This document shows, one piece after another, positions 1,511 through 17,957 of a DNA stretch of 20,000 nt. Under the pieces are notes generated by a model. The model searched no databases and was not told the DNA's origin. It saw only the letters and a program-made list of their open reading frames with translations. Location: IMG/VR virus record IMGVR_UViG_3300036546_000271; one strand, written 5' to 3'. Both the position numbers and the translations under genes were made by a program. Position 1 is the stretch's first letter. The number at the start of each line of letters is the position of its first letter. Source of the stretch: an uncultured virus (IMG/VR IMGVR_UViG_3300036546_000271). Taxonomy: Duplodnaviria > Heunggongvirae > Uroviricota > Caudoviricetes.

Positions 1511-2641
1511 ATGGAAAGAGAATTAAAAATGCCGGATTTTCTTCAAGAGGACGCTGATACCATCCATAATAGAATGCTAGAAAACGCACCCCTAGATATT
1601 AACCTTGTGGAAGGTGATTTTTTTTGGGATGCAACAAGACCTACTGCAGAAGAAAAAGCAGAACTTCTACAGATAAAGCTTCAAAATATATTAAAACTTG
1701 CATTTCCTCAAACAAGTTACGGACAGTATCTAGATTTTTTAGGAGAATTTAAAGATGTATACAGGAAGCCTCCCACTAAGGCAACTGGATACATAAAAGT
1801 AACTGGTAGCATTGGAGCGTATATGCCAAAGGATACGATTATATATACAGAGTCGTATGACGGACCTTCTATAGGATTTGTAGTTTTAGAATCTACGGAA
1901 GTAGATGAAAATGGAGAGGCGATGGTTAAAGTTGAATGCACAGAACCAGGAGTGATTGGCAATGTAGCTTCAAATACAATTAAAATACCAGAAAAAGATA
2001 TTCCTGGCATAAAAACAATAACTAATCCGGAGTCTTTAACAGGAGGAACAGGAGAAGAAGACGACGAGGCTTTTAGAGAAAGAGTATTAGCTGCCTATGA
2101 TGAAAGTCTAAGTGGATCAGATAGCGATTATAAAAGATGGGCCTTACAGGTACCAGGAGTCGGGCAAGCATACGTCATTTCAGAATGGGAAGGTTTTGGA
2201 ACTGGAACAACTAAGCTTCTTATAATGGACTCTAATGGGCAACCTGCGAATGAAACATTGATATCACAGGTGCAAGAATATATAGCTCCACTGGTAGAAA
2301 AAAATAGAGGAGGCTTAGCTCCTGTAAATGCAAATGTAACTGTATCAGCACCAGATGTAATTATTATAAATATATCTGTAAGTCTAATCTTTAAAGATGG
2401 TTACGAAAATTCTGCAGTCATTGAAAACTTGAAAGAAAATATAAAAGAATACCTTAGCACAATTGAAATAACAACTGATGATGAGAATGCTGAATATGTC
2501 TATAAAGAAGCTATAGGACATGTCATATTGAGTACACCAGGTGTAAAAATATATAGCAACTTAACAATTAACGGAGGAACAGATCCAATATTAGTGCCTT
2601 TAGGAGAAGTTCCAGCTTTAGGAGAGGTGTCTATATTATGA
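1511..2641 (+). CDS. Baseplate J/gp47 family protein (XkdT-like)
   Basis: 'EGDFFWDATRP', 'VECTEPGVIGNV', 'GGTGEEDDEAFRERVL' and 'DYKRWALQVPGVG' are hallmark baseplate J motifs. Confidence 0.9.
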   Translation: MERELKMPDFLQEDADTIHNRMLENAPLDINLVEGDFFWDATRPTAEEKAELLQIKLQNILKLAFPQTSYGQYLDFLGEFKDVYRKPPTKATGYIKVTGSIGAYMPKDTIIYTESYDGPSIGFVVLESTEVDENGEAMVKVECTEPGVIGNVASNTIKIPEKDIPGIKTITNPESLTGGTGEEDDEAFRERVLAAYDESLSGSDSDYKRWALQVPGVGQAYVISEWEGFGTGTTKLLIMDSNGQPANETLISQVQEYIAPLVEKNRGGLAPVNANVTVSAPDVIIINISVSLIFKDGYENSAVIENLKENIKEYLSTIEITTDDENAEYVYKEAIGHVILSTPGVKIYSNLTINGGTDPILVPLGEVPALGEVSIL

Positions 2642-3435
2642 TAACTTCTTCTAAAGGAAAACAAATGTTTCAAGCAGTAAGTCCTATATATTATCAATCG
2701 ATTATAATGCAATCTATTTTTCAAGTCATAGGAACAGAATGGGAAGATATAGATAAAATAGTAGACGAGATATTATTGCAGTTATTCCCACAAACAGCTA
2801 CTTGGGGTTTAAGGTATTGGGAGGAACTTTTAAATATACCAGCAAACGAATCAATTCCCATAGAAAAAAGAAGATCCTTAGTAATGACTAGAATAAAACT
2901 CAGAGCACCAATGACACCAGCAAGAATATCAAGTGCAGTAAAATCTTTAGCGGGTCAAATTGCAGATTTTGTAGAGGTAGTCGAAAACGTTGAACCTCAT
3001 GTATTTAGAGTTGTTCTAGGAGCTAAAGAAAGCGGGATTGATTACTTAAGCATTTATAGAGAGATAAAAAGAATAAAACCCTCTCATGAAAGCTTCTATT
3101 TAGGTAATAGCTACCTAAGATCCTTTAGTTTGAATGGAAAGTATATACGTGGTTTTTCTAAAATTCAACATACAATAGGTACATTTGTATGCAGTAAAGA
3201 TGATGTTGAATTTTTAGCCACAAAAGGATATAGAAGAGTTGAGGATATCACAATAGAGAAAAACAGAATATATGGAACATCGGATCCTTTGGTATGTAGC
3301 GAAAAATTAATACACACAACCGAAGGTTTTTTAGATAAAAGCATAATGGACCAGCAAGTGAGTAGCTCAACTGGAACCTCAAACCCTTTGGTTTGTAGTA
3401 AGAACCTCAAGTATACAAGAATAGAGGTGGTGTAA
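2638..3435 (+). CDS. Tail/baseplate protein XkdU/YmfQ (DUF2313)-like with extended C-terminus
   Basis: 'QLFPQTATWGLRYWEELLNI' and 'IKPSH' motifs. Follows baseplate J with ATGA overlap. Confidence 0.8.
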   Translation: MITSSKGKQMFQAVSPIYYQSIIMQSIFQVIGTEWEDIDKIVDEILLQLFPQTATWGLRYWEELLNIPANESIPIEKRRSLVMTRIKLRAPMTPARISSAVKSLAGQIADFVEVVENVEPHVFRVVLGAKESGIDYLSIYREIKRIKPSHESFYLGNSYLRSFSLNGKYIRGFSKIQHTIGTFVCSKDDVEFLATKGYRRVEDITIEKNRIYGTSDPLVCSEKLIHTTEGFLDKSIMDQQVSSSTGTSNPLVCSKNLKYTRIEVV

Positions 3436-3734: not shown

Positions 3735-4172
3735 ATGTACGATATTATCAAGTGGTATGATGAAGTAAAAGACCAAAACGGAAATCTTTTACAAGAAGGA
3801 ACTTTGCATGATGAAGTCAATATGAACCGTATGGAAGAAGGGATATACCAAGCGAATCTATTGGCTTCAATGTTAGTTCAAAAAGAGCTTCAACAGAAAA
3901 AAGTATTAGCAGCATTGGAAGGAGAGACGGGTCAAATTACTTTGACTAATAGCGAAACATTTCCTTTCAATAATTCCGTTCAGACTATAGCAATGGAAAA
4001 GCAGAGAGATGCTTTGGACTATAGAGTTTCTGTTGAAGTTATATCTAGTGATGGTGTTGTTGGAGATATCATAATCTCTGATAAGCAGCTAAATGGTTTT
4101 AAAATCGAATACACAGGTAGTGCTACAAGTGCAACTATTAAATATTACGTCCAAGGAGGCATGTATCAATAA
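3735..4172 (+). CDS. Hypothetical tail fibre/adaptor-like protein
   Basis: 145 aa, abuts the previous stop. N-terminal 'W.D...QEGT...NMNRMEEGI' resembles fibre N-termini. C-terminus is beta-rich. Confidence 0.55.
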   Translation: MYDIIKWYDEVKDQNGNLLQEGTLHDEVNMNRMEEGIYQANLLASMLVQKELQQKKVLAALEGETGQITLTNSETFPFNNSVQTIAMEKQRDALDYRVSVEVISSDGVVGDIIISDKQLNGFKIEYTGSATSATIKYYVQGGMYQ

Positions 4173-4336
4173 TGGCTAATGTTATACTTAAAAGCGATGA
4201 TAGAAAACAAAGAGAAAGACAAATTTTAAAGGATTTTGGATATAGTTCTAATACAGCTAGTAAAGAAGCTAGAGAAAAAGCTGAATATATAGCAGAAAAA
4301 ACTATGGAAATCAAGAAAAGTTGGGGGTGTAAGTAG
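4172..4336 (+). CDS. Small hypothetical protein (54 aa; not in ORF track)
   Basis: ATG at 4172 overlaps the upstream TAA, AGGAGG RBS upstream. Reads MANVILKSDDRKQRERQILKDFG...KSWGCK, with TAG abutting the next ATG (4337). Confidence 0.7.
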   Translation: MANVILKSDDRKQRERQILKDFGYSSNTASKEAREKAEYIAEKTMEIKKSWGCK

Positions 4337-4666
4337 ATGAATGTGATTGAAAAAAATGCAGGTCCTAAGATTGAATATAAACAAGAAAGTGAAAGCATAA
4401 TTTCATTTAGAGATGAATTATTTTTAAATCTTGAAAAATGCGAAAGAGACTATCCTGTGCAAATTGATATATGTGAAAATGAAGATGGAATACTAACTAC
4501 AGGCATTTCAAAGAAATATATAGCTCAAATAGAAATACCAGCACGAAAATACAGTGAAATTCCAATACAAGAAACAGGAACTGAAATCGAGGGAGAATCA
4601 ATAAAGCTCGAGCCAGTTCCTTTTTCAATGGACAATATAATATTAACATTATGGGCGATAAAATAA
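4337..4666 (+). CDS. Hypothetical protein upstream of DGR target
   Basis: 109-aa acidic ORF, GGGGG RBS, coupled to its neighbours. Confidence 0.65.
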   Translation: MNVIEKNAGPKIEYKQESESIISFRDELFLNLEKCERDYPVQIDICENEDGILTTGISKKYIAQIEIPARKYSEIPIQETGTEIEGESIKLEPVPFSMDNIILTLWAIK

Positions 4667-4678
4667 GGAGGTTATAAC

Positions 4679-5743
4679 ATGAATTATGATATGCTAAAAC
4701 TTGCGGTAGAAGGACTTAGTGGAGGAAAAAACACTATTTTGTTAGATGATAGAGGTATGCCAAGCTTTATGGTTAGATTTCCTAAATTAAAAGATTCTGA
4801 CCTGGTAGATGGTGCTACGCAGGATACTCACGATGCATTTATAGTCGATGGTGTAGAAAAAGACTTTTTCTATGTTTCTAAATACCAAAACATAGTAAAA
4901 GATGATAGAGCATACAGTTTGCCACTAATGGATCCAAGGGTATATGTGAACTTTGACCAGGCTAAAAACTATTCCGAAAACAAAGGATTAGGATGGCATC
5001 TTATGACAAATGCCGAGAGAGCAGCTATAGCTTTATGGTGTAAAAAGAACGGTTTTATGCCTCGTGGGAATAACGATTATGGCAAAGACGTATCTGCCCC
5101 TCATGAAAAAGGTATTGTTACTTATAAATATACAAGTGGTGAGACTGAATTAGATGGTAGAGTTGCTACTGGTTCTGGCCCTGCAAGTTGGGCACATGAC
5201 GGTACAACAGATGGAATCTATGATTTAAACGGGAACGTCTGGGAATGGTTTGGAGGCTACAGACTTGTAGATGGGGAAATTCAAATCATCCCATATAATA
5301 ATGCTGCTATGCAAGTAAATCAAGATCCAGATAGCACTCTTTGGAAAGCGATTATGCCAGACGGTTCATTAGTTGAACCAGGAACAGCTGGAACTCTTAA
5401 ATACGACGCAACTAATGCAGATGGCAGTGGTGGAATTCAAATTGGAACAGATGTTGTTAATCAAACAACTGGAGACCCATATGCAGCTCAAACATTAGAA
5501 ACTATAGCTGCAAAATCTGGAATTACAATACCAAATATCATGAAAACTTTAGCTTTAGCTCCTATAGACTCTGACCACGGAGGAGATTACCTGTATATGA
5601 GAAACCTTGGAGAGAGACTTCCGTCTTTCGGTGGCTGCTGGCACAGCGGTTCTTGGGCTGGTGTGTTTGCGGTGTACCTCCCCCACCCTCGCTCGTACTC
5701 CCTCAGCAGTATCGGTTTCCGCTCCGCTTATATTGAACTGTAA
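4679..5743 (+). CDS. DGR target protein; Mtd-like putative receptor-binding protein with C-type lectin (FGE-sulfatase-like) fold
   Basis: 'GIYDLNGNVWEW' and terminal 'GG.W....AGVF.......RS.S..SIGFRSA' match CLec/FGE-type DGR targets. The 3' end carries the VR. Located at the end of the tail module. Confidence 0.9.
   Translation: MNYDMLKLAVEGLSGGKNTILLDDRGMPSFMVRFPKLKDSDLVDGATQDTHDAFIVDGVEKDFFYVSKYQNIVKDDRAYSLPLMDPRVYVNFDQAKNYSENKGLGWHLMTNAERAAIALWCKKNGFMPRGNNDYGKDVSAPHEKGIVTYKYTSGETELDGRVATGSGPASWAHDGTTDGIYDLNGNVWEWFGGYRLVDGEIQIIPYNNAAMQVNQDPDSTLWKAIMPDGSLVEPGTAGTLKYDATNADGSGGIQIGTDVVNQTTGDPYAAQTLETIAAKSGITIPNIMKTLALAPIDSDHGGDYLYMRNLGERLPSFGGCWHSGSWAGVFAVYLPHPRSYSLSSIGFRSAYIEL
5618..5728 (+). 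repeat. DGR variable repeat (VR), 111 bp
   Basis: Ungapped match to 6186-6296 with 14 mismatches, each opposite an A in TR. Confidence 0.97.
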
Positions 5744-5773
5744 TCTGAAATCTGTAAAACTGATAATCTGAGT

Positions 5774-5793
5774 AGTCCTGCGATAGCAGGGCT
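5774..5793 (+). promoter_or_regulatory. DGR target-recognition hairpin/cruciform
   Basis: AGTCCTGC-GATA-GCAGGGCT: 8-bp stem (one G-T pair) with a GRNA-type 4-nt loop, about 45 bp downstream of VR. Confidence 0.75.
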
Positions 5794-5818
5794 TTATATA
5801 GCATTGGAGGTTGCAATA

Positions 5819-6160
5819 TTGAAGCAAGATTTCAAGATACTTCAAAAAACTTATGACATGATACTTTATGGCAATATATGTTTAAAGCAGTTTCCGAAAT
5901 TTGAAAAACACGTAATGTCAGCGGATATACGAAGTTCCATGTACAAATTATTAAACCTTATAGTTAGAGCTAATAAAAAATATTACAAGAAAACTACTTT
6001 ACAAGATATAGATATAGAACTAGAAGTTTTAAGAACATATATAAGACTTGCAGCGGATCCAAAACTAAAATATTTACCGCTTAAGAAATATGAAAATTGG
6101 AGCAAAATGCTTAACGAGATTGGTAGAATGTTAGGAGGGTGGATGAAATCCACTAAATAG
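5819..6160 (+). CDS. avd: DGR accessory variability determinant (four-helix bundle)
   Basis: Basic protein with 'QFPKFEK', 'LQDIDIELEVLRTYIRLA' and 'EIGRMLGGW', between VR and TR. TTG at 5819 chosen over 5804 because GGAGG lies at 5806-5810. Confidence 0.92.
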   Translation: MKQDFKILQKTYDMILYGNICLKQFPKFEKHVMSADIRSSMYKLLNLIVRANKKYYKKTTLQDIDIELEVLRTYIRLAADPKLKYLPLKKYENWSKMLNEIGRMLGGWMKSTK

Positions 6161-6169
6161 GTATAATAT

Positions 6170-6443
6170 GGGGAATGGATCGTAACTTCCGTATTTCGGT
6201 GGCAACTGGAACAACGGTTCTAGGGCTGGTGTGTTTGCGGTGAACCTCAACAACCCTCGCTCGAACTCCAACAACAGTATCGGTTTCCGCTCCGCTCATT
6301 TTCATAGTCAGAAGGCAAGCGGCTCAAGGGCACTTGTTCAGCACATGAAAATAAGGGGTCCATTTCCCTGCCGATAAGGCAAAAAATTATATTGCTATGA
6401 AAACAGTTAGTAGGTTAATTCTCGAAAGGTGTTACACATAGCA
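6170..6443 (+). ncRNA. Putative structured DGR template RNA (TR plus flanks/spacer)
   Basis: 6170-6181 can pair with 6357-6368. Further stems at 6298-6305/6345-6352, 6369-6381 and 6393-6399/6437-6443. Boundaries are inferred. Confidence 0.55.
6186..6296 (+). repeat. DGR template repeat (TR), 111 bp
   Basis: Non-coding copy of VR with 9 in-frame AAC triplets and 22 adenines, between avd and RT. Confidence 0.97.
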
Positions 6444-6472
6444 TTTAAATACAACATGGAGATGACGAGAAA

Positions 6473-7612
6473 ATGAAAAGATATGGCAATATATATAAAC
6501 AAATATATGATTTCGAAAATTTGTACCAGGCCTATTTAGAGGCAAGAAAAAACAAAAGGTACAGAGCTGACGTTTTAGAATTTAGTGCAAACTTAGAAGA
6601 AAACCTCATAGAAATTCAAAATGAATTGATATGGAAAGAATATGAGGTTGGAAGATATAGAGAGTTCTATGTATATGAACCTAAAAAAAGGCTTATAATG
6701 GCACTCCCTTTTAAGGACAGAGTGGTTCAATGGGCGATTTATAGAGTATTAAACCCAATATTTAATAAAACCTTTATAGAGCATAGTTATGCATGCAGAA
6801 AATGGAAAGGAACTCACAAAGCAGCAGATAAATTGCAGGATTGGCTTAGGAAACTAGATAGAAAACCAATTAAACACTACTATCTCAAAATGGATATATC
6901 AAAATATTTCTACAGAGTAGATCATGACGTTGCATTAAATATCCTTGAAAGAAAAATAAAAGATAAAGACGTGATTTGGCTGCTAGAAAAGATTATCAAG
7001 AGCAAACAAAAGCCATTTGGATTGCCATTGGGTATGGAGCCTGGAGATTGCCCTAAGCATATGAGGTTGTATAACAAAGGAATGCCTATAGGCAATCTAA
7101 CAAGCCAGCTCCTGGCAAACATATATCTCAATGAACTGGATCAATTCTGTAAACACGACCTAAGGATTAAGTATTACATCAGATATATGGATGACTTTAT
7201 TATTTTACACCATGATAAGAAATATTTACACAGGTTAAAAGTGGAAATAGAAAGCTTTTTAAACAGCCAACTTAAACTGCATCTCAATAAAAAGACTTGC
7301 ATTAGGCCTATAAGCTTAGGCATAGAGTTTGTAGGTTTTAAAATATGGCCAACCCATAGGAAATTAAAGAAAAAATCGGCTATCAAAATGAAAAGAAGAC
7401 TTAGGTATTTAAAGAAGGCATATGCCAGAGGGGAGGTTGCTTTAGATGAAATAAATGCAAGCATACAAAGTTATTTAGGGATACTGCAACATTGTAATAG
7501 TTATTCTCTCAAAAAGTCTATTTTTAAAGACTTGATTTTTACAAAGGACAAAATAAAAGAGTTCGCTAATAAAGGTATAGAGCAAGAAAACTCCAGTGGC
7601 TCACAAACATAA
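6473..7612 (+). CDS. DGR reverse transcriptase
   Basis: 'YIRYMDDF' catalytic motif, DGR-type 'GMPIGNLTSQ' motif, 'KDRVVQ', 'LKMDISKYF'. 379 aa with no maturase or endonuclease domain. Confidence 0.97.
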   Translation: MKRYGNIYKQIYDFENLYQAYLEARKNKRYRADVLEFSANLEENLIEIQNELIWKEYEVGRYREFYVYEPKKRLIMALPFKDRVVQWAIYRVLNPIFNKTFIEHSYACRKWKGTHKAADKLQDWLRKLDRKPIKHYYLKMDISKYFYRVDHDVALNILERKIKDKDVIWLLEKIIKSKQKPFGLPLGMEPGDCPKHMRLYNKGMPIGNLTSQLLANIYLNELDQFCKHDLRIKYYIRYMDDFIILHHDKKYLHRLKVEIESFLNSQLKLHLNKKTCIRPISLGIEFVGFKIWPTHRKLKKKSAIKMKRRLRYLKKAYARGEVALDEINASIQSYLGILQHCNSYSLKKSIFKDLIFTKDKIKEFANKGIEQENSSGSQT

Positions 7613-7626
7613 ATTGGAGGTGTATT

Positions 7627-7881
7627 ATGGACCAGACGCTTTGTAACGAAAAACATAAAAGAATTGAAGAAAGATTGGAAATACAAGATAGAAGATTAAA
7701 CAATCACTCGGAAAGACTTGATAAAATAGAACAGCTTCAATCAAGGACAGAGGCTCAAATTTCTAGTCTCTGCGACCAAATCAAGTCACTTGTTACAACA
7801 ATGAGGTGGTTTATAGGATTGTTAGTAGGAGCTTTTGTAAGCTTCTTTTTTTATGCAGTTCAACAAAGTCTTTTTAAATAG
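7627..7881 (+). CDS. XhlA-like (hemolysin family) lysis membrane protein
   Basis: N-terminal coiled coil 'RLNNHSERLDKIEQ' plus one C-terminal TM helix 'WFIGLLVGAFVSFFFY'. First gene of the lysis cassette. Confidence 0.8.
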   Translation: MDQTLCNEKHKRIEERLEIQDRRLNNHSERLDKIEQLQSRTEAQISSLCDQIKSLVTTMRWFIGLLVGAFVSFFFYAVQQSLFK

Positions 7882-7893
7882 GAGGTTTTGAAA

Positions 7894-8604
7894 ATGAAAG
7901 TGATTATAGACCCAGGGCACGGAGGGAAGGATCCTGGTGGTGGAAGTAATAACTATTGGTTAGAAAAAGATAAAACATTAGAAATATCGTTATATCAATT
8001 GAAAAGACTCAAAGAGCTTGGGATAGATGTAGAAATCACAAGAGATAAAGACATATATTTAGGCCCTACTGAAAGAACAAAGATAGTAAGAAATTCTAAT
8101 GCCGACATATGCATTTCAAACCATATAAATGCAGGAGGCGGTGAAGGTGCTGAAACGATACACAGTATTTTTTCAGATGGCAAGTTGGCAACTATCATTC
8201 TGAATAAAATGGTGGCTGCAGGACAGAAAAAAAGAAGAGTCTTTTGCAAAAAAAGCTCAAGATGGCCTGGAAAGGACTATTATTACATGCACAGGCAAAC
8301 TGGCAATGTGGAAACTGTTATAGTAGAGTATGGGTTCGCAGACAATGAAAATGATACAGAAAGAATAAAAAAGCATTGGAAAGAATATGCTGAGGCAGTT
8401 ATTAGAGCCATATGTCAATATGCAGATATTCCATACTCAAATCAGGCTAAAGAAGATAAAGCAGATGGACCGAGTCCGTGGGCTAAGGAAGCTTGGGAAA
8501 AATCTATTAGGATAGGTCTAAATGATGGAGCAGGAGCTAAAAATCCTGTAACAGAAGAGCAACTTATGGTTTTCTTCGATAGACTTGGGCTATTAGACAG
8601 ATAA
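7894..8604 (+). CDS. Endolysin, N-acetylmuramoyl-L-alanine amidase (Amidase_3) with C-terminal SLH-like segment
   Basis: 'IDPGHGGKDPG', 'EK', 'SNHINAGGGEGAE', 'VIVEYGF'. C-terminal 'WAKEAWEK...NPVTEEQL'. ATG at 7894 fits the AGGAGG RBS. Confidence 0.92.
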   Translation: MKVIIDPGHGGKDPGGGSNNYWLEKDKTLEISLYQLKRLKELGIDVEITRDKDIYLGPTERTKIVRNSNADICISNHINAGGGEGAETIHSIFSDGKLATIILNKMVAAGQKKRRVFCKKSSRWPGKDYYYMHRQTGNVETVIVEYGFADNENDTERIKKHWKEYAEAVIRAICQYADIPYSNQAKEDKADGPSPWAKEAWEKSIRIGLNDGAGAKNPVTEEQLMVFFDRLGLLDR

Positions 8605-8618
8605 AGGGGTGATTGCAA

Positions 8619-8879
8619 ATGAAAAAGAAAATGGAGTTTTCTAAAATCTTAGCGATAATTATAACCATACTGTTTGTAGTAAGTATAATTTTTGTATTTG
8701 CAGTGTGGTATTTTGAAAACAGGCTTGGAACAGAAATTCTTTCTTATGTTGCAATGCCTTTTGGCGTTGTTATAAGCGGGTATTTTGCAAAGGCGGGCTT
8801 TGAGAACCATAGAAAAATCAATAATGCAGGCAAAGAAATCGTAAAGTTTAATAATGAGGAGGAATATTATAATGGATAA
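8619..8879 (+). CDS. Small two-TM membrane protein (holin-like)
   Basis: 'MEFSKIL' followed by two hydrophobic helices and 'GYFAKAGFEN'. In the lysis cassette. Start could be 8613. Confidence 0.6.
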   Translation: MKKKMEFSKILAIIITILFVVSIIFVFAVWYFENRLGTEILSYVAMPFGVVISGYFAKAGFENHRKINNAGKEIVKFNNEEEYYNG

Positions 8880-9192
8880 TAATGCTGTAATAGAAATTGG
8901 GACTATCATAATCGCTCTTATAGGTGCGGTTATAACGTATATAGTTACACCATACATCAAAAGCAAGACCACCGCAGAGCAATACAAAAATATAGAGTTT
9001 TGGGTTAGGTTTGCAGTTAAAGCTGCAGAACAAATATTCAACCAGCCAGGTATGGGAAATAAAAAGAAACAATATGTCATTGACTTTTTAACCAGCAAAG
9101 GCATAAACATAACACTTGATGAGTTGAATGTATTGATTGAAGCTGCAGTCCAAGAACTGAATTTAGAAAAAAGAGATTTGACCAGGGAATAA
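8872..9192 (+). CDS. Phage holin, LL-H family-like
   Basis: N-terminal TM helix, 'AVKAAEQIF..G.G.KKKQYV' and 'LIEAAVQEL'. GAGGAGG RBS before ATG 8872. Confidence 0.82.
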   Translation: MDNNAVIEIGTIIIALIGAVITYIVTPYIKSKTTAEQYKNIEFWVRFAVKAAEQIFNQPGMGNKKKQYVIDFLTSKGINITLDELNVLIEAAVQELNLEKRDLTRE

Positions 9193-9207
9193 TCCCTGGT
9201 CTTTTTT
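9180..9207 (+). terminator. Rho-independent terminator of late/lysis operon
   Basis: GACCAGGGA-ATAA-TCCCTGGTC perfect 9-bp stem followed by T6. Confidence 0.88.
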
Positions 9208-9221
9208 AATTTAAAGAATTT

Positions 9222-9268
9222 TGATATAATAATTTGATATAATAAATAATACAAAATTTAAGGAGGAG
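9222..9268 (+). promoter_or_regulatory. Tandem extended -10 promoters and RBS for the miaB 5' fragment
   Basis: TGATATAAT at 9222-9230 and 9235-9243 (TGn-TATAAT), then AAGGAGGAG upstream of ATG 9274. Confidence 0.7.
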
Positions 9269-9273
9269 AATAA

Positions 9274-9426
9274 ATGAGCAAAAGGAAGGAAATAAATGTA
9301 TCTAAAAACGAACTAGCTAAGCAGCAAATTTATATAGATAAAATAAGAAAGATGAACGACGAATACTACAAAAGAACAGGCAAGAGGAAAAAACATCTCA
9401 CTCTAACGTTCGGTTGTCAGATGAAC
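9274..9426 (+). pseudogene. miaB: Phage-borne 5' fragment of tRNA methylthiotransferase MiaB (51 codons; ORF runs on to 9510 in unrelated sequence)
   Basis: Ends in 'LTFGCQMN', the N-terminal Fe-S Cys motif characteristic of MiaB. The expected continuation (xxDSE) is absent, and the frame runs antisense into the integrase 3' end. Confidence 0.8.
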
Positions 9427-9443
9427 TCACTGAGATGTATTTT
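9388..9443. other. Putative attP site of the serine integrase
   Basis: Inverted repeat AAAAAACATCTCA (9388-9400) / TGAGATGTATTTT (9431-9443), 12/13 match, centred on TG at 9415-9416, 16 bp from the integrase stop. Confidence 0.72.
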
Positions 9444-9459
9444 TATTTCCCAACTTTCA

Positions 9460-11175
9460 TCACTTTCTATAAACAAACCTATGGGTAATTCCATTCACAA
9501 ACTCAATTGACGATATGCGTCTATCCTCCTCTATAGTTATGTTTTTGATAACACACCTCATGAAATCCTGGAGCAACTCTTTGTCTACCATTTTTACAAT
9601 TTTGTTGTAGTTAATAGGTTTATTTGTGGCAAGGTTTTGAGCAATAAGATACTGAGTTGCTTTTTTTATAAAACTCAAATCATGACCTGGAAGGCTCTTT
9701 GCATATTCCTGGGTCCTTTTTTTAATTTTTGTATTTATACTATTTATCCTTTTTTCTATATCTTGCTTTTTTATTAAGTAATTTTTTTCTGACATACCTT
9801 CATCGCTGAACAGATATAAATCTTCTAATCTTTTCAAAGCTCTTTCAAACTTCTTCTTTTGAGATTTTAAAGACTCAAGCTCTGTGTCTTTTTCAATGCT
9901 CTTAATTTCATCTTTCTGGTCAAACAATATATTACCAGTACTTTTTAATAAAATATCGTATGTGGTTTTTAAATCCTGCGGAATAATTCCAGCAACATTT
10001 TTAAATGCCGGACCTTTTAACAAAATCCTCTCAACTTCTTTTTCTGTGCCTTTCGTTCCATAAGTATTGATAAAATTATTTGCTTTTACTAGGTTGGCGA
10101 TATAATTGATAATAAATGGTCCAAGCTTAACCTCTCCAATGCTCCCGCTGCATGTCCTATATTTCTTTTTGTTATGAACGTAATTATAACACCTATACAC
10201 AGATGGTCTGTATCCATCAGATCTAGGACGGTCAACAGTGGCTATATAATTTTTATTACATTTGCCACAAGTTATTAATCCCTTGAAAACATGTGTATGG
10301 TTTTTTAGAGTTCTATCAGATCCTCTGCCATGTGCATTGGAATCCATTATAGCGTTGCATTTTTCATACTGAACTTTTGAAATAATAGCGGGATGATTGT
10401 CTTCGACCACAACCCATTCTTCCTCAGGACGAATTTTTCCATGTGGACTATATCTGTAGTTGTATCTATAGGTTCCTATATAAAATGGATTCCTAATTAC
10501 ATCAGCTATAGTTTTTGTGGTCCAATGTCCATTCCTTTTGGTGCGTATTCCACGCTCCTCTAAAAGATGTTTCACTTCTCCTGTAGATCTAGTTTTTTCA
10601 TACGAATCAAAAATAAAACGAACTGTTTCGGCCTCTTTTTCATTGATTACAGGAAACTTTGTTTCTTCATCAAAATCATATCCAAGAGGAACTGGAGCTC
10701 CGTTCCATAAACCTTTCTCTGCTCTAGATAGCATTATAGAGTAGACTCTCTCTGCAGCTAACTTCCTTTCAAGTTCTGCGAATACTAGGATTATCTTAAG
10801 CATTGCCTCTCCCATAGCAGTGGATGTGTCAAATTGTTCATTTTTGGATATAAAAGTAATATTATGCTTTTTTAGCTCCTCATACATTTCAGTGAAGTCT
10901 TTTAAATTTCTTGATATACGATCTATTTTCCAGACCAAGAGATGGGTAAATTCTCCATCTCTTATCCTTTTCATCATTTCCTGGAATTTTGGACGATCTG
11001 TGTTTTTACCACTATAACCAGCATCTTCAAACACTTCATAGTTATCTATGCCTAACAAGTATTTAGAGTAATTGATGAGCTCCTTCCTTTGGAAGGGAAG
11101 GGAATCTTTATCCACTTGATGATGGGTTGACACTCTTATGTATAAAGCTGCTTTGTTTTCTGTGTTTTTATCCAT
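9460..11175 (-). CDS. Large serine recombinase (phage integrase)
   Basis: 'ALYIRVST' catalytic Ser, '[12 protein letters not shown]', 'KIDRISRN', recombinase domain 'NPFYIG', zinc ribbon 'CGKC...YRC...C' and a coiled coil. Confidence 0.96.
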
Positions 11176-11203
11176 ATTACAAGACCCCCTTTGTTTTATT
11201 TAA

Positions 11204-11695
11204 TTACCACGAAATATTCTTAGCTTCTTTAACTTTAGCTCCATCAACAATTGTGTGTTCTGGCGAAGACCCAACAACTACAAGCAAGTTATAATAATCA
11301 TACAATTCTCCTAAATAGTCATTTTTAGGTGGCTCAAGCTCATCTCCATCATTATAAAAAGCAACACCAGATGATAAAGCTCTTACAAAGCTATCCGCTA
11401 ATTCTCTAGCTGTTTCTTCGTTTATTGAAGCTCCAACTTGTATAGCCATAGATATCGTCTTATCTTCTTTATTTACTTCAACATGTGCATCTTTAACTTC
11501 ATCATAGCCCAATATTATGTCATAAGCGTGTTTCATTGCCGCATCTGATATTTCCGGTAATTGCACATTTTCTTCTGTAACAGTTTTATCTGTTGGCTGA
11601 CCTTCATTTTTTTTCTCATCTGGTCCCCCAATAAAAAGCGATAAAACAATTAGAAAAGCGGTGACACCTAATAATATTTTTAATACTTTTTTCAT
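11204..11695 (-). CDS. Membrane-anchored/exported protein (candidate superinfection-exclusion or lysogenic conversion protein)
   Basis: Start MKKVLKILLGVTAFLIVLSLFIGG at 11695 with GGGGG RBS, N-terminal TM helix then an acidic domain. Sits between repressor and integrase. Function inferred from position only. Confidence 0.65.
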   Translation of the reverse strand: MKKVLKILLGVTAFLIVLSLFIGGPDEKKNEGQPTDKTVTEENVQLPEISDAAMKHAYDIILGYDEVKDAHVEVNKEDKTISMAIQVGASINEETARELADSFVRALSSGVAFYNDGDELEPPKNDYLGELYDYYNLLVVVGSSPEHTIVDGAKVKEAKNISW

Positions 11696-11730
11696 TTTTA
11701 AATATCCCCCTTTTAAAATATTTTTTAAAA

Positions 11731-11930
11731 ATTTGCGTCGGTTTAGCAGACACAAACCCTAATTTGTGTCGGTTTAACAGATACTATTGCGTCGGTTTAA
11801 CAGAATCAAATCAATTCACTGTGTCGGTTTAAACGAGGCAAAATATTTTGCACTATCGGTTTAACAGACACAAAACACCATTTGCGTCGGTTTAGCAGAC
11901 ACAAACCCTAATTTGTGTCGGTTTAACAGA
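11731..11930. repeat. Iteron-like array of seven ~17-bp direct repeats (consensus TGYGTCGGTTTARCAGA)
   Basis: Core TCGGTTTA starts at 11738, 11769, 11792, 11824, 11856, 11887 and 11918. The 51-bp block 11731-11781 is repeated exactly at 11880-11930. Confidence 0.9.
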
Positions 11931-12027
11931 ACATATATTATCTATCTTATCTATTATATATATTAATAATAAATAGATAGATATGATATGTATTAATAAG
12001 AATAACAAAAAGATTTAAGATTTAAAA

Positions 12028-12660
12028 TTAAACTTTAAATTTAACATGAATGACTTTGCCAATAATTTGTACATAGCCAGATTCAACATCGCTAGACTTA
12101 AAAACCATAGGTTTATATTTAGGGTTTTCTGGTTGAAGAATGACAGAGTCATTAGTTTTTAATACTCTTTTTAGAGTAGCTTCATCTCCATTCACTAAAA
12201 CAACAGCAATTTCGCCATTATCCACATCAGATTGCTTTCTAACATAAACAAGATCGCCGTCATAAATTCTAGCACCTATCATACTATCTCCATTAACTCT
12301 TAAATAGAAGAATTCACCGTTTTGAGCTTCTGATACATCGACATACTCATAGCCTTCAATATTCTCAGCAGCAAATATAGGTTCTCCAGCTTTGATCACT
12401 CCTAGAATTGGGATAGAAATAGTATCGTTCAGCTCAATAATATCCTTCAAATCTTCGTTCCTTTTATTTGTTTTACCAATAAGGTAATCAATAGAAACAC
12501 CGAAGAAATCTGACAATGCTCTTAAAGTCTTTATGTCTGGTTCTCTTTCTTTGAGTTCGTACTTAGATATAGTAGTATTTCTTACGTTTAATATTTTTGC
12601 TAAATCCTTTTGAGTCAAACCTTTTTCAGTTCTTAATAATTTTAGCCTTTTAGAAAACAT
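12028..12660 (-). CDS. CI-like repressor (XRE HTH plus S24 LexA-type autopeptidase)
   Basis: 'RLKLLRTEKGLTQKDLA...ISKYE...REP' HTH, Ala-Gly cleavage site 'IKAGEP', catalytic 'GDSM' and 'ATLKR'. Confidence 0.93.
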   Translation of the reverse strand: MFSKRLKLLRTEKGLTQKDLAKILNVRNTTISKYELKEREPDIKTLRALSDFFGVSIDYLIGKTNKRNEDLKDIIELNDTISIPILGVIKAGEPIFAAENIEGYEYVDVSEAQNGEFFYLRVNGDSMIGARIYDGDLVYVRKQSDVDNGEIAVVLVNGDEATLKRVLKTNDSVILQPENPKYKPMVFKSSDVESGYVQIIGKVIHVKFKV

Positions 12661-12684
12661 AATTTTCCACCTCCTTTTATTTAA

Positions 12685-12713
12685 ATTTTATATTTCCCAT
12701 ATCGGGAAATCAA
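12685..12713 (-). promoter_or_regulatory. Leftward (lysogenic) sigmaA-type promoter
   Basis: Minus strand TTGATT-N17-TAAAAT, with an operator palindrome across the spacer. Confidence 0.7.
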
Positions 12714-12809
12714 GAAAATAAATTATTATCCCCAAAAAGGGAATTTAGACTTGACTTTCCCATAACGGGGATATATAATTATTACAAAGACGTTCCCCAT
12801 AACGGGGAT
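12692..12809. promoter_or_regulatory. Four repressor operators, consensus WTYCCC-N5-GGGRAT
   Basis: Sites at 12692-12710, 12728-12744, 12756-12772 and 12793-12809. A fifth lies at 13019-13035. Confidence 0.82.
12751..12779 (+). promoter_or_regulatory. Rightward (lytic) sigmaA-type promoter
   Basis: TTGACT-N17-TATAAT, with an operator in the spacer. Confidence 0.85.
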
Positions 12810-12823
12810 ATGGAGGTGATCAA

Positions 12824-13042
12824 ATGTATGAGCGTCTAAGAGAATTAAGAACAAATAACGGCTATACACTACAGCAAATGTCAAATCTTCTAGGATACTC
12901 TTCTCCAAACGCATACGCAAGAAAAGAAAAAGGAGAGAGAAGATTTACTATCGAAGAGGCTATGAAAATATCGAAACTTTTTAAAAAGCCAATTGAAGAA
13001 ATTTTTTTTGAAGATGAAATCCCCAATAAGGGGACTGATTAG
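12824..13042 (+). CDS. Cro-like XRE HTH regulator
   Basis: 'RLRELRTNNGYTLQQMSNLLG..YARKEKGERRFTIEEA..IEEIFF'. Divergent from CI, GGAGG RBS. Confidence 0.9.
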   Translation: MYERLRELRTNNGYTLQQMSNLLGYSSPNAYARKEKGERRFTIEEAMKISKLFKKPIEEIFFEDEIPNKGTD

Positions 13043-13971: not shown

Positions 13972-14255
13972 AGGCTACAAATCAAAACGTTGATACAGCC
14001 ATTATATCACAAATGGCTGTAAATGAAAAGCTTGACATAATCAAAGAGACGGAAACCATCTTAGGATATAAAGTGGACAAGCATAGGTACCAAAAAGCTT
14101 ATGAGTACGCATTACATAAGCTAGGATGGCAAAGCAAGTTATATGGATGCAAATACAATAAAAGATACTTAGCGATAGTTACAGCAGAAACCTATGAACA
14201 GCAAATATTTCAAGATTATATAAATTCAACTTCAATGAGGAGGTTAAGAGCATGA
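13929..14255 (+). CDS. Hypothetical early protein
   Basis: 108-aa ORF coupled (ATGA) to the ATPase gene. Confidence 0.6.
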   Translation: METKRKSLQHNEVLKATNQNVDTAIISQMAVNEKLDIIKETETILGYKVDKHRYQKAYEYALHKLGWQSKLYGCKYNKRYLAIVTAETYEQQIFQDYINSTSMRRLRA

Positions 14256-16204
14256 GATTTATATTAGAAAAATTGAAAATCAGAAATTTTAAAGGGATTA
14301 GAGAACAAGATATAGATTTTAGCCCAGTTTCCACAACAATCTGCGGAGAAAACGCAACAGGGAAAACCACAGTAGTAGACGCATTCACATGGCTGCTATT
14401 TGAGAAAGACAGCAAAGGAAGAACGCAGTTCGAAATCAAGACACTAGAAGATGGAGAGCCACTACACGGATTAGATCACTTGGTAGAAGGGATATTTAAG
14501 ATTGACGGAAGGCAACTAAAGTTAAAGAAAATATACAGAGAAAAGTGGACCAAAAGAAGAGGAGATGACCAAGAAGTATTTACAGGCCACGAGATTGAAA
14601 GGTTTGTAAATGACATACCATGTAAGAAAAGCGAATACGAAAAGAAAATAGGACAGTTGATAGACGAAAAGATATTCCAGTTACTGACTGACCCACTATA
14701 CTTCTCACAACAGCTAAACTGGAAGGAAAGACGAGCAACATTATTTGCACTAACTGGAGAGGAAATATCAAAAGAACACATATTCCAAGCTAACCCAGAA
14801 TTAAAAAATATAGAAGATGACCTAAAGGACAAAACCATAGAAGAGCTTAAGAAATCTTTAAGCTATCAAAGAAGAGAGCTTAACAAAAAACGCGAGAATA
14901 TACCGGTTAAAATAGAAACTCTGAATAGCACTATAAAGGACATAGACAAAACAGCACTAGACATAAGACTACGAAGCATAAAGGGTGGAATAAGCAAAAT
15001 AGAAGAACAAATGTTAGATATAACCAAGTTAAACGACGAGCAGCTAAGAAAACAGGATGATATGTATAAACTAAAAAGCAAGCTAAGAGAGATAGAATAT
15101 GAAATCAAAAACAACATAAAGGATCCGGATGAAGAAATTAAAAATCAAATTAGAGAATACAAAAATAGATTAAGAGAACTCGAAATAGAAGAAAATGGAG
15201 AAAAAAGAAGAGTTGCAAACCTTGAAAAAAATATAGAAAGAGGAGAAAGAACACTAGAAAGGCTAAGAAATGACTACAAGCGAGAAGCAGAAAAGCAGCT
15301 ATCGATAGATGAGAATATCAAAGTATGCCCAACATGCAAGAGACCATTTCCGGAAGAGGAAATTGAAAGTAAAGTAGCAGAGCTTGAAGCAAACTTTAAA
15401 GAAAATCAAGTAAAGGAATTAAAACGATTAAGAGAAGAAGGGCAGTCCATGGCCAAGGAAGTTAAAGAATACAAAGAAGAGCTCGAACAGACAACAAACA
15501 AGCTCCAAGAGATACAAAAGGAATCACAAACCTTAAGAGAGCTAATAGAAGATCGAGAGGCTATGATTGGTTCCAATCCTAAAACAGACATAGAGACTTT
15601 ACTAAAAGAAAATAAAGAGTACCAGGAAACTAAAACTAGAATTAAAAAGCTTGAGTCAGATATACAAAACCAGGACCATGAATCAGTATTAAAGGAGCTC
15701 AAGAAGAAAAAGACTGAACTAGAACTAGAGCTAAGGGAAACTGAGAAACAACTTCACCAAGAAGAAATAAACGAAGAAACTAAAGCAAAAATTAAAGAGT
15801 TAATTCGAGAAGAAAAAGAACTCTCACATGAGATAAATAACATAGAGCGAAAAGAAAGTTTAGCAGATAAATATATAGCAACTAGAGCTGAACTGATAGA
15901 AAAAAGCATAAATCAAAAGTTCGGTAAAGTGTCGTTTAGGCTCTTCAAAGAGCAAGTAAATGGAGGACTGGATGAAACCTGCGATGTCCTAGTCGATGGA
16001 GTGCCATTCGATAATGCCAACACAGCTGGCCAAGTAAATGCAGGACTAGATGTAATCAACAGCCTATGCAGACACTACGACACATACACACCAATCTTTA
16101 TAGATAACAGAGAGAGCATAAATGAACTGATAGAAACAGACTCACAGATAATCAACCTAAAAGTGACTAGACATAAAAACTTAAGAGTAGAGGTTGATAG
16201 CTAA
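14252..16204 (+). CDS. SMC/Rad50-like AAA ATPase
   Basis: 'LKIRNFKG', Walker A 'GENATGKTT', long coiled coils with central 'CPTC' hook, Walker B-like 'PIFIDNRES'. Confidence 0.88.
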   Translation: MRFILEKLKIRNFKGIREQDIDFSPVSTTICGENATGKTTVVDAFTWLLFEKDSKGRTQFEIKTLEDGEPLHGLDHLVEGIFKIDGRQLKLKKIYREKWTKRRGDDQEVFTGHEIERFVNDIPCKKSEYEKKIGQLIDEKIFQLLTDPLYFSQQLNWKERRATLFALTGEEISKEHIFQANPELKNIEDDLKDKTIEELKKSLSYQRRELNKKRENIPVKIETLNSTIKDIDKTALDIRLRSIKGGISKIEEQMLDITKLNDEQLRKQDDMYKLKSKLREIEYEIKNNIKDPDEEIKNQIREYKNRLRELEIEENGEKRRVANLEKNIERGERTLERLRNDYKREAEKQLSIDENIKVCPTCKRPFPEEEIESKVAELEANFKENQVKELKRLREEGQSMAKEVKEYKEELEQTTNKLQEIQKESQTLRELIEDREAMIGSNPKTDIETLLKENKEYQETKTRIKKLESDIQNQDHESVLKELKKKKTELELELRETEKQLHQEEINEETKAKIKELIREEKELSHEINNIERKESLADKYIATRAELIEKSINQKFGKVSFRLFKEQVNGGLDETCDVLVDGVPFDNANTAGQVNAGLDVINSLCRHYDTYTPIFIDNRESINELIETDSQIINLKVTRHKNLRVEVDS

Positions 16205-16222
16205 AAGGGGGCCTATATAAAA

Positions 16223-16423
16223 GTGGAAACTAACATAACCACTGAGGATATCTTGCATTACATTGAAGAAGCTAGAAATGAGATGGAATCGGCTATAAAT
16301 AGATTTAATAATGCTACTACTGAACCAGAAATTGATATAGCCATATACTCAATGATAGCTGCAGAAAAGAAAATAAACATGCTATACAAAGCAGCTAAGG
16401 AAATCATAGGGTGGGCTAAATAA
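16223..16423 (+). CDS. YaaL/DUF2508-like small protein
   Basis: 'IEEARNEMESAINRFNNATTEPEIDIAIYSMIAAEKKINMLYKAAK' resembles the DUF2508 pattern (recalled, not searched). Confidence 0.6.
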   Translation: METNITTEDILHYIEEARNEMESAINRFNNATTEPEIDIAIYSMIAAEKKINMLYKAAKEIIGWAK

Positions 16424-16443
16424 ATAGCAAAGGAGAATGGAAA

Positions 16444-17217
16444 ATGGCGAATAATGATATTTTAAACAAACCAGTAGTTTATGAGGTGAATGGTCAAGAA
16501 GTAAAGCTTACAGGTAAAATGGTTAAAAATTATCTTACTAGAGGAAATGACGATGTGAGCGAACAGGAAATAGTAATGTTCATAAATCTTTGTAGGTACC
16601 AAAAACTTAACCCATTCCTTAACGAGGCATACTTAGTTAAATTTAAAGGAGCACCGGCACAACTAATCACTAGTAAAGAGGCATACATGAAAAGAGCCTT
16701 CGAGCATCCGAAGTTTGATGGAATAAGAGCTGGAATTATAGTTCAGAGAGGAGAAGAAACGCTGGAACTGGAAGGGAGCTTTAGCTTGCCAGGAGATATA
16801 TTACTAGGTGGTTGGGCAGAGGTATATGTGAAAGACAAAAAATATCCATACGTAACTAAGATAAATCTAGAAGAATTTAACAAAGGACAAGCTACATGGA
16901 AAAACATGCCCAAAACAATGATAAGAAAAACAGCATTAGTACAAGCATTAAGAGAAGCTTTTCCGGATAACTTAGGAGCAATGTACACAGAAGAAGAACA
17001 AGCAGTGGTAAGAGAGGTGAGTGAAACAGAAGTAGAAGTAGCAGAAGAAATAGAAGCAAATGCCAATAAGGAGATTATCGATATACCAGATGAAGAAATA
17101 ACAGAAGTAAAACCAGAGAATCAACAACAAAGACAAAAACAAGGAGCTAAGCCCAAAGGGCAACGACCAGAAAAACAGCAAACACTAGATGATTTATACG
17201 AAGGACCAGGGTTTTAA
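16444..17217 (+). CDS. bet: Single-strand annealing recombinase Bet/RecT
   Basis: 'FINLCRYQKLNPFLNEAYLVKF', 'GGWAEVY', 'WKNMPKTMIRKTALVQALREAFP'. Confidence 0.9.
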   Translation: MANNDILNKPVVYEVNGQEVKLTGKMVKNYLTRGNDDVSEQEIVMFINLCRYQKLNPFLNEAYLVKFKGAPAQLITSKEAYMKRAFEHPKFDGIRAGIIVQRGEETLELEGSFSLPGDILLGGWAEVYVKDKKYPYVTKINLEEFNKGQATWKNMPKTMIRKTALVQALREAFPDNLGAMYTEEEQAVVREVSETEVEVAEEIEANANKEIIDIPDEEITEVKPENQQQRQKQGAKPKGQRPEKQQTLDDLYEGPGF

Positions 17218-17957
17218 TGAGACTAAAAATATTAGCAAGCGGTAGCAGCGGAAACTGCTACCTGCTTGAAAACCAATATGAAACACTGATTCTGGAGGCT
17301 GGGATAACATTCAAGAAAATACAGGAAGGGATAAATTACAAAACAGGAAAAGTAGCAGGTTGTCTGGTTACCCACGAGCACAATGATCACAGCAAAAGCG
17401 TAGAGCAGTTAATCAAAAACAGCATAGATGTTTATACAAGCAAAGGAACGATAGATGCACTAGGATTAAAAGAAAATTATCGATTAAAAACTATAAGAGC
17501 ACAAAAAAAAATAAGTGTAGGAGGATTTACAATACTCCCATTCGAAACACAACACGATGCAGCTGAGCCTCTAGGATTTCTAATCCATCACAAAGATATG
17601 GGAAAGCTGCTTTTTATAACGGACTCATACTACTGCAAATATAAATTTAAAGGGCTGGACCATATCATGGTAGAGTGCAACTACAAAAAAGAAATTTTAA
17701 ACCAAAACATAGAGGCTGGAATAATACCAGAATGGTTAAGAAAAAGAATAACAAAATCACACTTCGAACTGGAAAATGTAAAAGATTTTTTAAAAAGCAG
17801 CGACTTAAGCAGAACTAAAAATATAATACTAATACATTTAAGCAGTCAAAACAGCAATGAGAATCTATTTAAAACATATATAGAAAAGTCAACAGGAAGA
17901 CCAGTATATGTAGCCAAGAAAGGACTAGAGATAGACATAAGCAAGCAAGTGTTTTAG
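17217..17957 (+). CDS. MBL-fold metallo-hydrolase (probable exonuclease partner of Bet)
   Basis: 'LASGSSGNCY', 'THEHNDH', 'HDAAEP', 'TDS', 'ECNY', 'LIHLS'. Confidence 0.9.
   Translation: MRLKILASGSSGNCYLLENQYETLILEAGITFKKIQEGINYKTGKVAGCLVTHEHNDHSKSVEQLIKNSIDVYTSKGTIDALGLKENYRLKTIRAQKKISVGGFTILPFETQHDAAEPLGFLIHHKDMGKLLFITDSYYCKYKFKGLDHIMVECNYKKEILNQNIEAGIIPEWLRKRITKSHFELENVKDFLKSSDLSRTKNIILIHLSSQNSNENLFKTYIEKSTGRPVYVAKKGLEIDISKQVF

Follow-up and report, generated by a model that had tools for sequence, protein, structure and literature searches.

In the diversity-generating retroelement (DGR) of Bordetella phage BPP-1, the gene of the proven tropism determinant Mtd lies after a tail-fibre gene and ahead of avd, the template repeat (TR), the reverse transcriptase (RT) gene brt and the lysis genes. 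Large catalogues of DGRs exist, and the same kind of cassette has already been deposited and described for the isolated phages Saumur (Clostridium), Lagaffe (Faecalibacterium), BalMu-1 (Bacillus) and Bise (Pseudomonas). In another DGR, that of a Thermus aquaticus prophage, the variable protein TaqVP has an FGE-type C-type-lectin (CLec) fold (PMC6328139). In this work, we analyse a DGR found at positions 4679-7612 of a 20,000-nt stretch of DNA (the window) from an uncultured Caudoviricetes virus (IMG/VR record IMGVR_UViG_3300036546_000271). We read the cassette as a complete BPP-1-type DGR, with every part intact and recently active in nature, and put the probability of this reading at about 0.85. 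It is a DGR of a well-known kind and does not change what is known about these elements; its value lies in offering a clean, fully equipped phage example from subsurface and shale-type metagenomes.

As in BPP-1, the window contains a tail gene, a target gene with a variable repeat (VR) at its 3' end, avd, TR, a structured RNA proposed as spacer, an RT gene and lysis genes, in that order. BPP-1 differs in having a short tail and a proteobacterial host. A preliminary description, made from the letters of the stretch alone, had listed the target, the 3' VR, a hairpin, avd, TR and an intact RT, and all of them are in place. Its assignment to the BPP-1 type is also supported, by every feature tested: the RT clade and motif, the presence of Avd, the adenine-specific repeat pair, the hairpin with its GRNA-type loop, the CLec-fold target and the location between tail and lysis genes.

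A repeat search of positions 4000-8500 revealed a direct repeat of 127 nt (5608-5734 and 6176-6302, 84% identity), while all remaining pairs in this interval were only 20-29 nt long. The VR/TR core of this repeat, 112 nt at an offset of 568, has 14 mismatches. TR has A at all of them, and VR has C (six), T (five) or G (three). The hypergeometric chance that 14 mismatches would all fall on the 23 adenines among 112 positions is 3.4e-12. Conversely, VR agrees with TR at 89/89 non-A template positions, and the first non-adenine mismatches (5615, 5729 and 5732) are the ends of the homology. All 14 mismatches fall on the first or second base of a codon in the target frame, in which TR reads as nine AAC codons plus TAT, AGG, AGT and ATC. 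Substitutions at the TR adenines never create a stop codon in this frame, and TR can encode about 7e12 protein variants. The stop codon of the target follows VR at a distance of 15 nt. In the window VR, 61% of the template adenines are changed (14/23), not far from the 52% per-adenine misincorporation reported for the BPP-1 enzyme, bRT, in vitro (PMC7826257).

At the 3' end of VR, a 17-nt stretch free of A (G/C at 11 of 17 positions) is the same in both repeats. By analogy with BPP-1 (PMC3240598), the segment 5712-5734 may act as the counterpart of the initiation of mutagenic homing (IMH) and IMH* sequences. No second VR was found in the 20-kb window, since the next best place matches TR at only 40/89 non-A positions; in Lagaffe, by contrast, a second VR was reported (PMC11792537). 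An exact search of viral, genome and metagenome contigs with a 61-nt stretch of TR gave no match.

The stretch is present in eight public runs, two of which are possible sources of the window, and contigs of four of them were compared with the window over positions 4300-7900. Run X1 (study P1, possibly the source of the window) provided one contig of 3601 nt with two differences, at 5625 and 5637, both at TR-A sites. Run X3 (study P3) also provided one contig of 3601 nt, with 43 differences, 17 of them within the 112-nt VR. In run X4, from the same study as X3, two contigs (4300-5635 and 5709-7900) showed one VR difference, at 5625, and in run X7 (study P4), recovered in pieces, there were five. 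Among the differences listed, 18 distinct VR places vary and 18/18 are TR-adenine sites (chance 1.2e-16); if the differences between the window's own VR and TR are counted, 20 of the 23 adenine sites varied. The VR residues changed number 11 in X3, five in X7 and two in X1. The listed differences outside VR are of mixed types and sparse, except for a cluster at 5033-5074, none of the rows listed shows a difference in TR, and the X7 contig spanning 6219-6572 differs at one place, 6338. The DNA around VR is about 99% identical between these natural populations. Because all 18 listed VR differences fall at TR-adenine sites, we consider the element to have been active in nature: the pattern is the one predicted by mutagenic retrohoming and is unlike that of ordinary divergence.

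The cluster at 5033-5074, nine differences within 42 nt of the target gene and outside VR, is common to X3, X4 and X7. The same segment also draws high-depth contigs of other organisms' targets, and recombination within a conserved motif, not DGR action, seems to have produced it. The gap between the two X4 contigs (5635-5709), which takes up most of VR, was considered as an assembly break caused by VR heterogeneity and rejected, as a hole between contigs proves nothing.

Among solved structures, the best relative of the RT is bRT of BPP-1 (PDB 8ub7; E 1.9e-53, 185 bits); the best-scoring RT of a group II intron reaches E 4.5e-23 and 85 bits. The motifs IGNLTSQ and YMDD are present, and the alignment shows that the counterparts of bRT F66, R74, I76, I181, G182, Q187 and D215/D216 are kept. 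According to PMC7826257, R74 and I181 promote adenine mutagenesis, and [I/V/L]GxxxSQ is the DGR signature, as opposed to QGxxxSP in group II and retroviral enzymes. We built an RT tree of 36 rows, comprising the window, BPP-1 Brt, Saumur, Lagaffe, 29 RTs of DGR loci hand-picked from 160 related loci across the identity range, and an outgroup of two group II RTs above the TIGR04416 cut-off plus one retron-like RT, drawn from three genomes to which the related loci led. The 33 DGR rows split from the three outgroup rows with a Shimodaira-Hasegawa-like approximate likelihood-ratio (SH-aLRT) support of 98, and the window RT groups with those of two related loci, L083 and L003 (support 100). The [IVL]GxxxSQ signature is found in 30/33 DGR rows, and all three outgroup rows have QGxxxSP and YADD. 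The preliminary description would have fallen with an RT of the group II intron or retron kind; instead, the window RT clusters with BPP-1 Brt.

Avd was identified by the NCBIfam equivalog DivGenRetAVD (NF033474; 130.8 bits, cut-off 80), by Pfam bAvd (120.9 bits, cut-off 40) and by phrog_3206. Its start is probably the in-frame TTG at 5819, not 5804; a GGAGG at 5806-5810 stands 8 nt ahead of this TTG, and the family models start aligning at residues 6-12 of the frame opened at 5804.

Table 1. Coordinates of the retroelement and of the genes around it in the 20,000-nt window
Feature	Position	Strand	Remarks
DGR target (variable protein) gene	4679..5743	+	354 aa; FGE-type C-type-lectin fold; TaqVP family
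Variable repeat (VR)	5617..5728	+	target codons 313-350
IMH-like 3' end of VR	5712..5734	+	A-free over 5712-5728; diverges from TR from 5729
DNA hairpin/cruciform	5774..5793	+	downstream of VR; 8-pair stem including one T.G; loop GATA (GRNA-type)
avd	5819..6160	+	open reading frame open from 5804 (118 aa); likely TTG start
Template repeat (TR)	6185..6296	+	9 AAC codons in VR frame
Structured RNA, Rfam RT-14 (RF02921)	6295..6441	+	between TR and RT; proposed spacer (Sp)
DGR reverse transcriptase	6473..7612	+	379 aa, intact; RVT_1 84.5 bits (Pfam); phrog_1423 E 2e-154
Baseplate_J-like and Mu gp48-like genes	1511..3435	+	Pfam Baseplate_J 213 bits; Phage_Mu_Gp48 133 bits
Small fibre-like protein	3735..4172	+	145 aa; beta-sandwich knob after a long helix; conserved ahead of the target
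Conserved 109-aa protein	4337..4666	+	directly upstream of target; phrog_8734
Lysis module	7627..9192	+	XhlA 7627-7881; Amidase_3 endolysin 7888-8604; holin 8854-9192
Lysogeny module	9460..12660	-	large serine recombinase 9460-11175; S24/HTH repressor 12028-12660

The target is a full-length homologue of TaqVP (PDB 5VF4; E 1.2e-69 over residues 4-352, phmmer search of PDB sequences) and carries VR in the same C-terminal segment, although the host of TaqVP belongs to a different phylum. It also matches phrog_2889 (E 1e-133) and Pfam FGE-sulfatase (28.1 bits, cut-off 23.3). An AlphaFold2 model based on 28 aligned relatives (pLDDT 93.1, pTM 0.93) was compared with solved structures by Foldseek, and the match to 5VF4 (TM 0.92, E 8e-43, 39% identity in the structural alignment) upholds the lectin-type fold that had been anticipated for this protein. 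Weaker matches were TvpA, FGE enzymes and Mtd (E 1e-4 to 2e-3). Mtd itself, at only E 7e-4 and TM about 0.3, differs from the target in having extra N-terminal domains and in being a trimer. If TaqVP is taken as a guide, the VR residues would form a surface-exposed binding face of the target.

The order baseplate J, gp48-like gene, small open reading frames (ORFs), target, avd, TR, RT and lysis genes is found in Saumur, Lagaffe and BalMu-1, all phages of Bacillota; in Bise and BPP-1 there is a target-avd-TR-RT core placed after tail genes. These isolated phages other than BPP-1 have the same module, with targets 45-47.5% identical to that of the window. The preliminary description rightly placed the cassette between the baseplate and lysis modules. 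Its word "inserted" misleads, however, since several known phages carry the cassette as a conserved component of this tail module. No protein of the cassette is more than 47.5% identical (the target) to those of the isolated phages, and a megablast search of a phage collection gave no nucleotide-level match to the cassette.

Four small ORFs (99, 145, 54 and 109 aa) separate the gp48-like gene from the target. The AlphaFold2 model of the 145-aa protein (pLDDT 85.5, pTM 0.55) weakly resembles H-type lectins and the C-terminal knobs found in phage tailspikes, in R-pyocin fibres and in gp53, the AP22 fibre. Five BFVD matches reached 1e-3 or better, two of them named putative tail fibre proteins, and homologues are present in Saumur, Lagaffe and BalMu-1. 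Pfam returned nothing meaningful for this protein and 14 of its homologues at E up to 1. An Atlas look-up, useful as a lead only, placed it in an H_lectin/Gp53-like_C cluster at 0.92 and the 109-aa protein in unnamed viral clusters. In BalMu-1, Saumur, Lagaffe and Bise, the gene immediately ahead of the target encodes a homologue of the 109-aa protein (E 3e-32 to 5e-12), and further homologues were found in 16 related loci. A complex prediction for the target and the 109-aa protein gave a score of 0.00 and a mark of 0.32, which speaks neither for nor against binding. The conserved set of small proteins around TaqVP-type targets may represent a tail-tip module.

Judging from gene order and from the fibre-like neighbour, the target is probably a receptor-binding protein of the distal tail that determines tropism. 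This role, the activity of the element and the nature of its RT all have to be set against a number of observations that count against our reading, which we take together with the alternatives they bear on. A rather unlikely but by no means negligible alternative is that the DGR is real and active while its target is not a receptor-binding tail protein at all, being instead an accessory adhesin, a decoration or a protein acting in the lysogen; the true binder would then be the 3735-4172 protein or a gene outside the window. TaqVP has one domain and is monomeric, in contrast to the trimeric Mtd, and neither its function nor any anchor domain is known (PMC6328139); the authors of a Faecalibacterium prophage study call the exact function of Lagaffe-type targets unknown (PMC11792537). 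The 145-aa neighbour carries a lectin-like knob of its own. At the same time, the fold matches on which the fibre-like character of this neighbour is based are weak (best PDB match E 4.8e-3, none at or below 1e-3), and the presence of the target in virions is a prediction from gene order. Against a non-tail target, the gene invariably occupies the fibre position, downstream of the baseplate J and gp48-like genes, in phages of both Bacillota and Pseudomonadota, its BPP-1 equivalent is the proven tropism determinant, and a look at the ORF list, Pfam and PHROGs found no further fibre-sized gene between the baseplate and lysis genes.

Returning to the reading of the cassette as a complete and recently active DGR, its activity was read from assembled contigs, from which rare variants are dropped, so that the differences are between contigs and not within samples. 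X1 may correspond to the window's own sample and X3 and X4 come from one study; furthermore, up to six of the 43 differences of X3 are without placement, and all placements are among the rows listed. Contigs of this kind cannot reveal ongoing variation within one population, and the DGRs of some cultured phages were reported to lack read-level variation (PMC11792537). It could be argued from this that the cassette is an inactive relic and that the VR differences reflect ordinary divergence or selection on a surface loop. We regard this as very improbable, given that all ORFs are intact, that the catalytic and signature residues are kept, and that X1 differs from the window at two A sites only. 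Moreover, the restriction of the variable VR places to template adenines is a rule that the listed differences outside VR do not follow, and TR is unchanged among the rows listed.

A more basic objection, that the RT is a group II intron or retron enzyme next to a coincidental repeat, can appeal to the best NCBIfam match, which is the group II maturase model TIGR04416 (147 bits, cut-off 300, in a collection with no DGR-RT model), and to the tree outgroup, which has three rows with the retron-like one on a very long branch and thus makes the tree a check and not a full phylogeny; within the reach of the tools used here, it is refuted by the motif, the tree and the below-cut-off family scores (45.5 bits against a cut-off of 235 for the retron St85 model), with the far better match to bRT, an Avd equivalog adjoining the RT and an Rfam scan that found RT-14 and no intron or msr/msd RNA family, and its probability is close to nil.

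The remaining point against our reading concerns the hairpin. In phage DGR targets, hairpins are described as having a GC-rich stem of 7-10 bp and a 4-nt GRNA loop, 4-34 bp from VR (PMC3240598). Both BPP-1 and the window have a GRNA-loop hairpin after VR, but that of the window is farther away, beginning 45 nt past VR and thus outside the published range. Folded as DNA, it reaches -8.5 kcal/mol (z -2.3), and 8/200 shuffled sequences were equally stable. Three runs have C in place of T at position 5776, so that the T.G pair becomes C-G. We surveyed 93 related loci in which VR comes first for perfect stems of at least six pairs with loops of 3-5 nt within 110 nt. A hairpin was present in 47/93 and a GRNA-type tetraloop in 21/93, counts that are lower bounds because this strict rule misses the window's own stem with its wobble pair. 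A GATA loop 35-43 nt from VR was found in 13/93 loci, with quite different stem sequences. A promoter and terminator scan of 5500-7900 found none above shuffles, and the hairpin is not terminator-like.

The related loci come from an RT search in which viral contigs yielded 186 related stretches and genome contigs 410; 80 from each set were used. Among the 161 sources tested (these 160 loci and the window), 101 have an A-biased repeat pair, defined as one with at least five mismatches, at least 80% of them at adenines of one copy. The window itself falls outside this definition, since BLAST carried the alignment of its pair on into the flanks (15/20 mismatches at A). As A-biased pairs are common among related loci, the cassette is one of a large and already described class. 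VR precedes TR, as in the window, in 93 of the 101 sources. In eight related loci (L035, L045, L046, L048, L049 and others) we observed the opposite order, with TR first and VR some 1.9-2 kb downstream, past the RT.

Between TR and RT there is a full-length match to the Rfam model RT-14 (64.4 bits, gathering threshold 48.1). RT-14 was also found in 18/20 viral loci with the closest RTs and in 4/20 of the next ones (all within the range L002-L033). In the window and in the 19 of these loci where TR could be located too, its start falls between -10 and +4 nt of the point where the TR homology ends. As a control, BPP-1 has RF03022 ("Bacteriophage Diversity-Generating Retroelement RNA") between TR and brt, that is, in the equivalent place, where the window has RF02921. 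For Saumur and Lagaffe there was no Rfam match between TR and RT at the gathering threshold. In the paper that introduced the RT motifs (PMC5737381), only RT-10 was tied to the BPP-1 DGR, with some speculation on the other RT motifs, whereas in the window RT-14 adjoins the end of TR. According to a preprint on the BPP-1 DGR RNA, this RNA wraps the RT-Avd complex and supplies the priming adenosine, similar RNA elements occur in 207/278 Avd-containing DGRs, and DGR RNA elements are conserved across phyla (10.1101/2023.10.23.563531). Since RT-14 holds the same position after TR as RF03022, and in view of this preprint, we propose that it is the spacer part of the DGR RNA in this clade. An orphan Rfam family would thereby gain a function, at least in one clade. 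Looking by eye for a priming duplex between TR and the spacer, we settled on none.

By comparison with these systems, the element may be expected to work as follows. The RT-Avd complex would bind an RNA that spans TR together with the RT-14 structure next to it and copy it into cDNA, placing random nucleotides opposite the 23 template adenines. Homing of the cDNA would rely on the A-free 3' end common to both repeats and on the GATA-loop hairpin, and the cDNA would take the place of VR in the target gene. This would rewrite 13 target codons, which by analogy with TaqVP should lie at the protein surface, drawing on the full coding potential of TR (up to about 7e12 protein variants), and the diversified target would change the host or receptor range of the phage. 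In this scheme, priming by RT-14, the course of homing and the distal-tail identity of the target are what we infer. A more far-reaching picture, which as a whole is tentative and more likely wrong than right, is that a compact receptor-binding module made up of the 145-aa mini-fibre with its lectin-like knob, its 109-aa partner and a monomeric TaqVP-type target replaces the long tail fibre in this PBSX/phiCD-like myophage lineage, with the target as the main programmable receptor binder, RT-14 as a self-priming spacer RNA and the element diversifying in deep-subsurface communities today.

The genes upstream of the cassette include a YqbQ-like gene, DUF2577, a sheath initiator, Baseplate_J and a Mu gp48-like gene. 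The Baseplate_J protein shares 46-48% identity with its counterparts in Clostridioides difficile myophages, among them phiCD27 and phiCD508. Among the genome RTs listed, the closest are those of a Bacillota metagenome-assembled genome (80%), Caloranaerobacter (71%; Bacillota, Tissierellia) and Desulforamulus putei (64%). The G+C content of the window is 35%. On account of the baseplate genes, the serine recombinase and repressor, and the closest RTs, the assignment to a temperate, contractile-tailed phage of anaerobic Bacillota appears well supported. The preliminary description had spoken of a contractile-tailed, temperate phage of Clostridia type, and similarity favours each of these terms: the first through the sheath initiator and the Baseplate_J protein like that of C. 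difficile myophages, the second through the serine integrase and S24 repressor, and the third through the closest RTs being in Bacillota.

Downstream of the cassette, over 7627-13042, the lysis genes are followed by the serine integrase and repressor genes without any intervening host DNA. For this reason, the window shows an unintegrated (circular or concatemeric) gene order and not that of an integrated prophage. A 201-aa ORF on the minus strand (8649-9254) overlaps the holin gene; it has no family match in Pfam, PHROGs or NCBIfam and is probably not a gene. Near the end of the integrase gene there is a perfect tandem duplication of 13 nt (TTTGATATAATAA twice, 9220-9245). Between the repressor gene and the start of a minus-strand ORF (11204-11755), a unit of about 31 nt with the core GTCGGTTTAACAGA occurs seven times at positions 11730-11930, in several cases within a short palindrome (TTTGTGTC...GACACAAA). 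These repeats could be operator or iteron-like binding sites. Beyond the repressor, a Cro-like gene is followed by a recombination and replication module. In the early region, the recombination module at 14252-17957 encodes a 650-aa SMC/Rad50-like ATPase with a weak zinc-hook match, RecT and a protein of the metallo-beta-lactamase fold.

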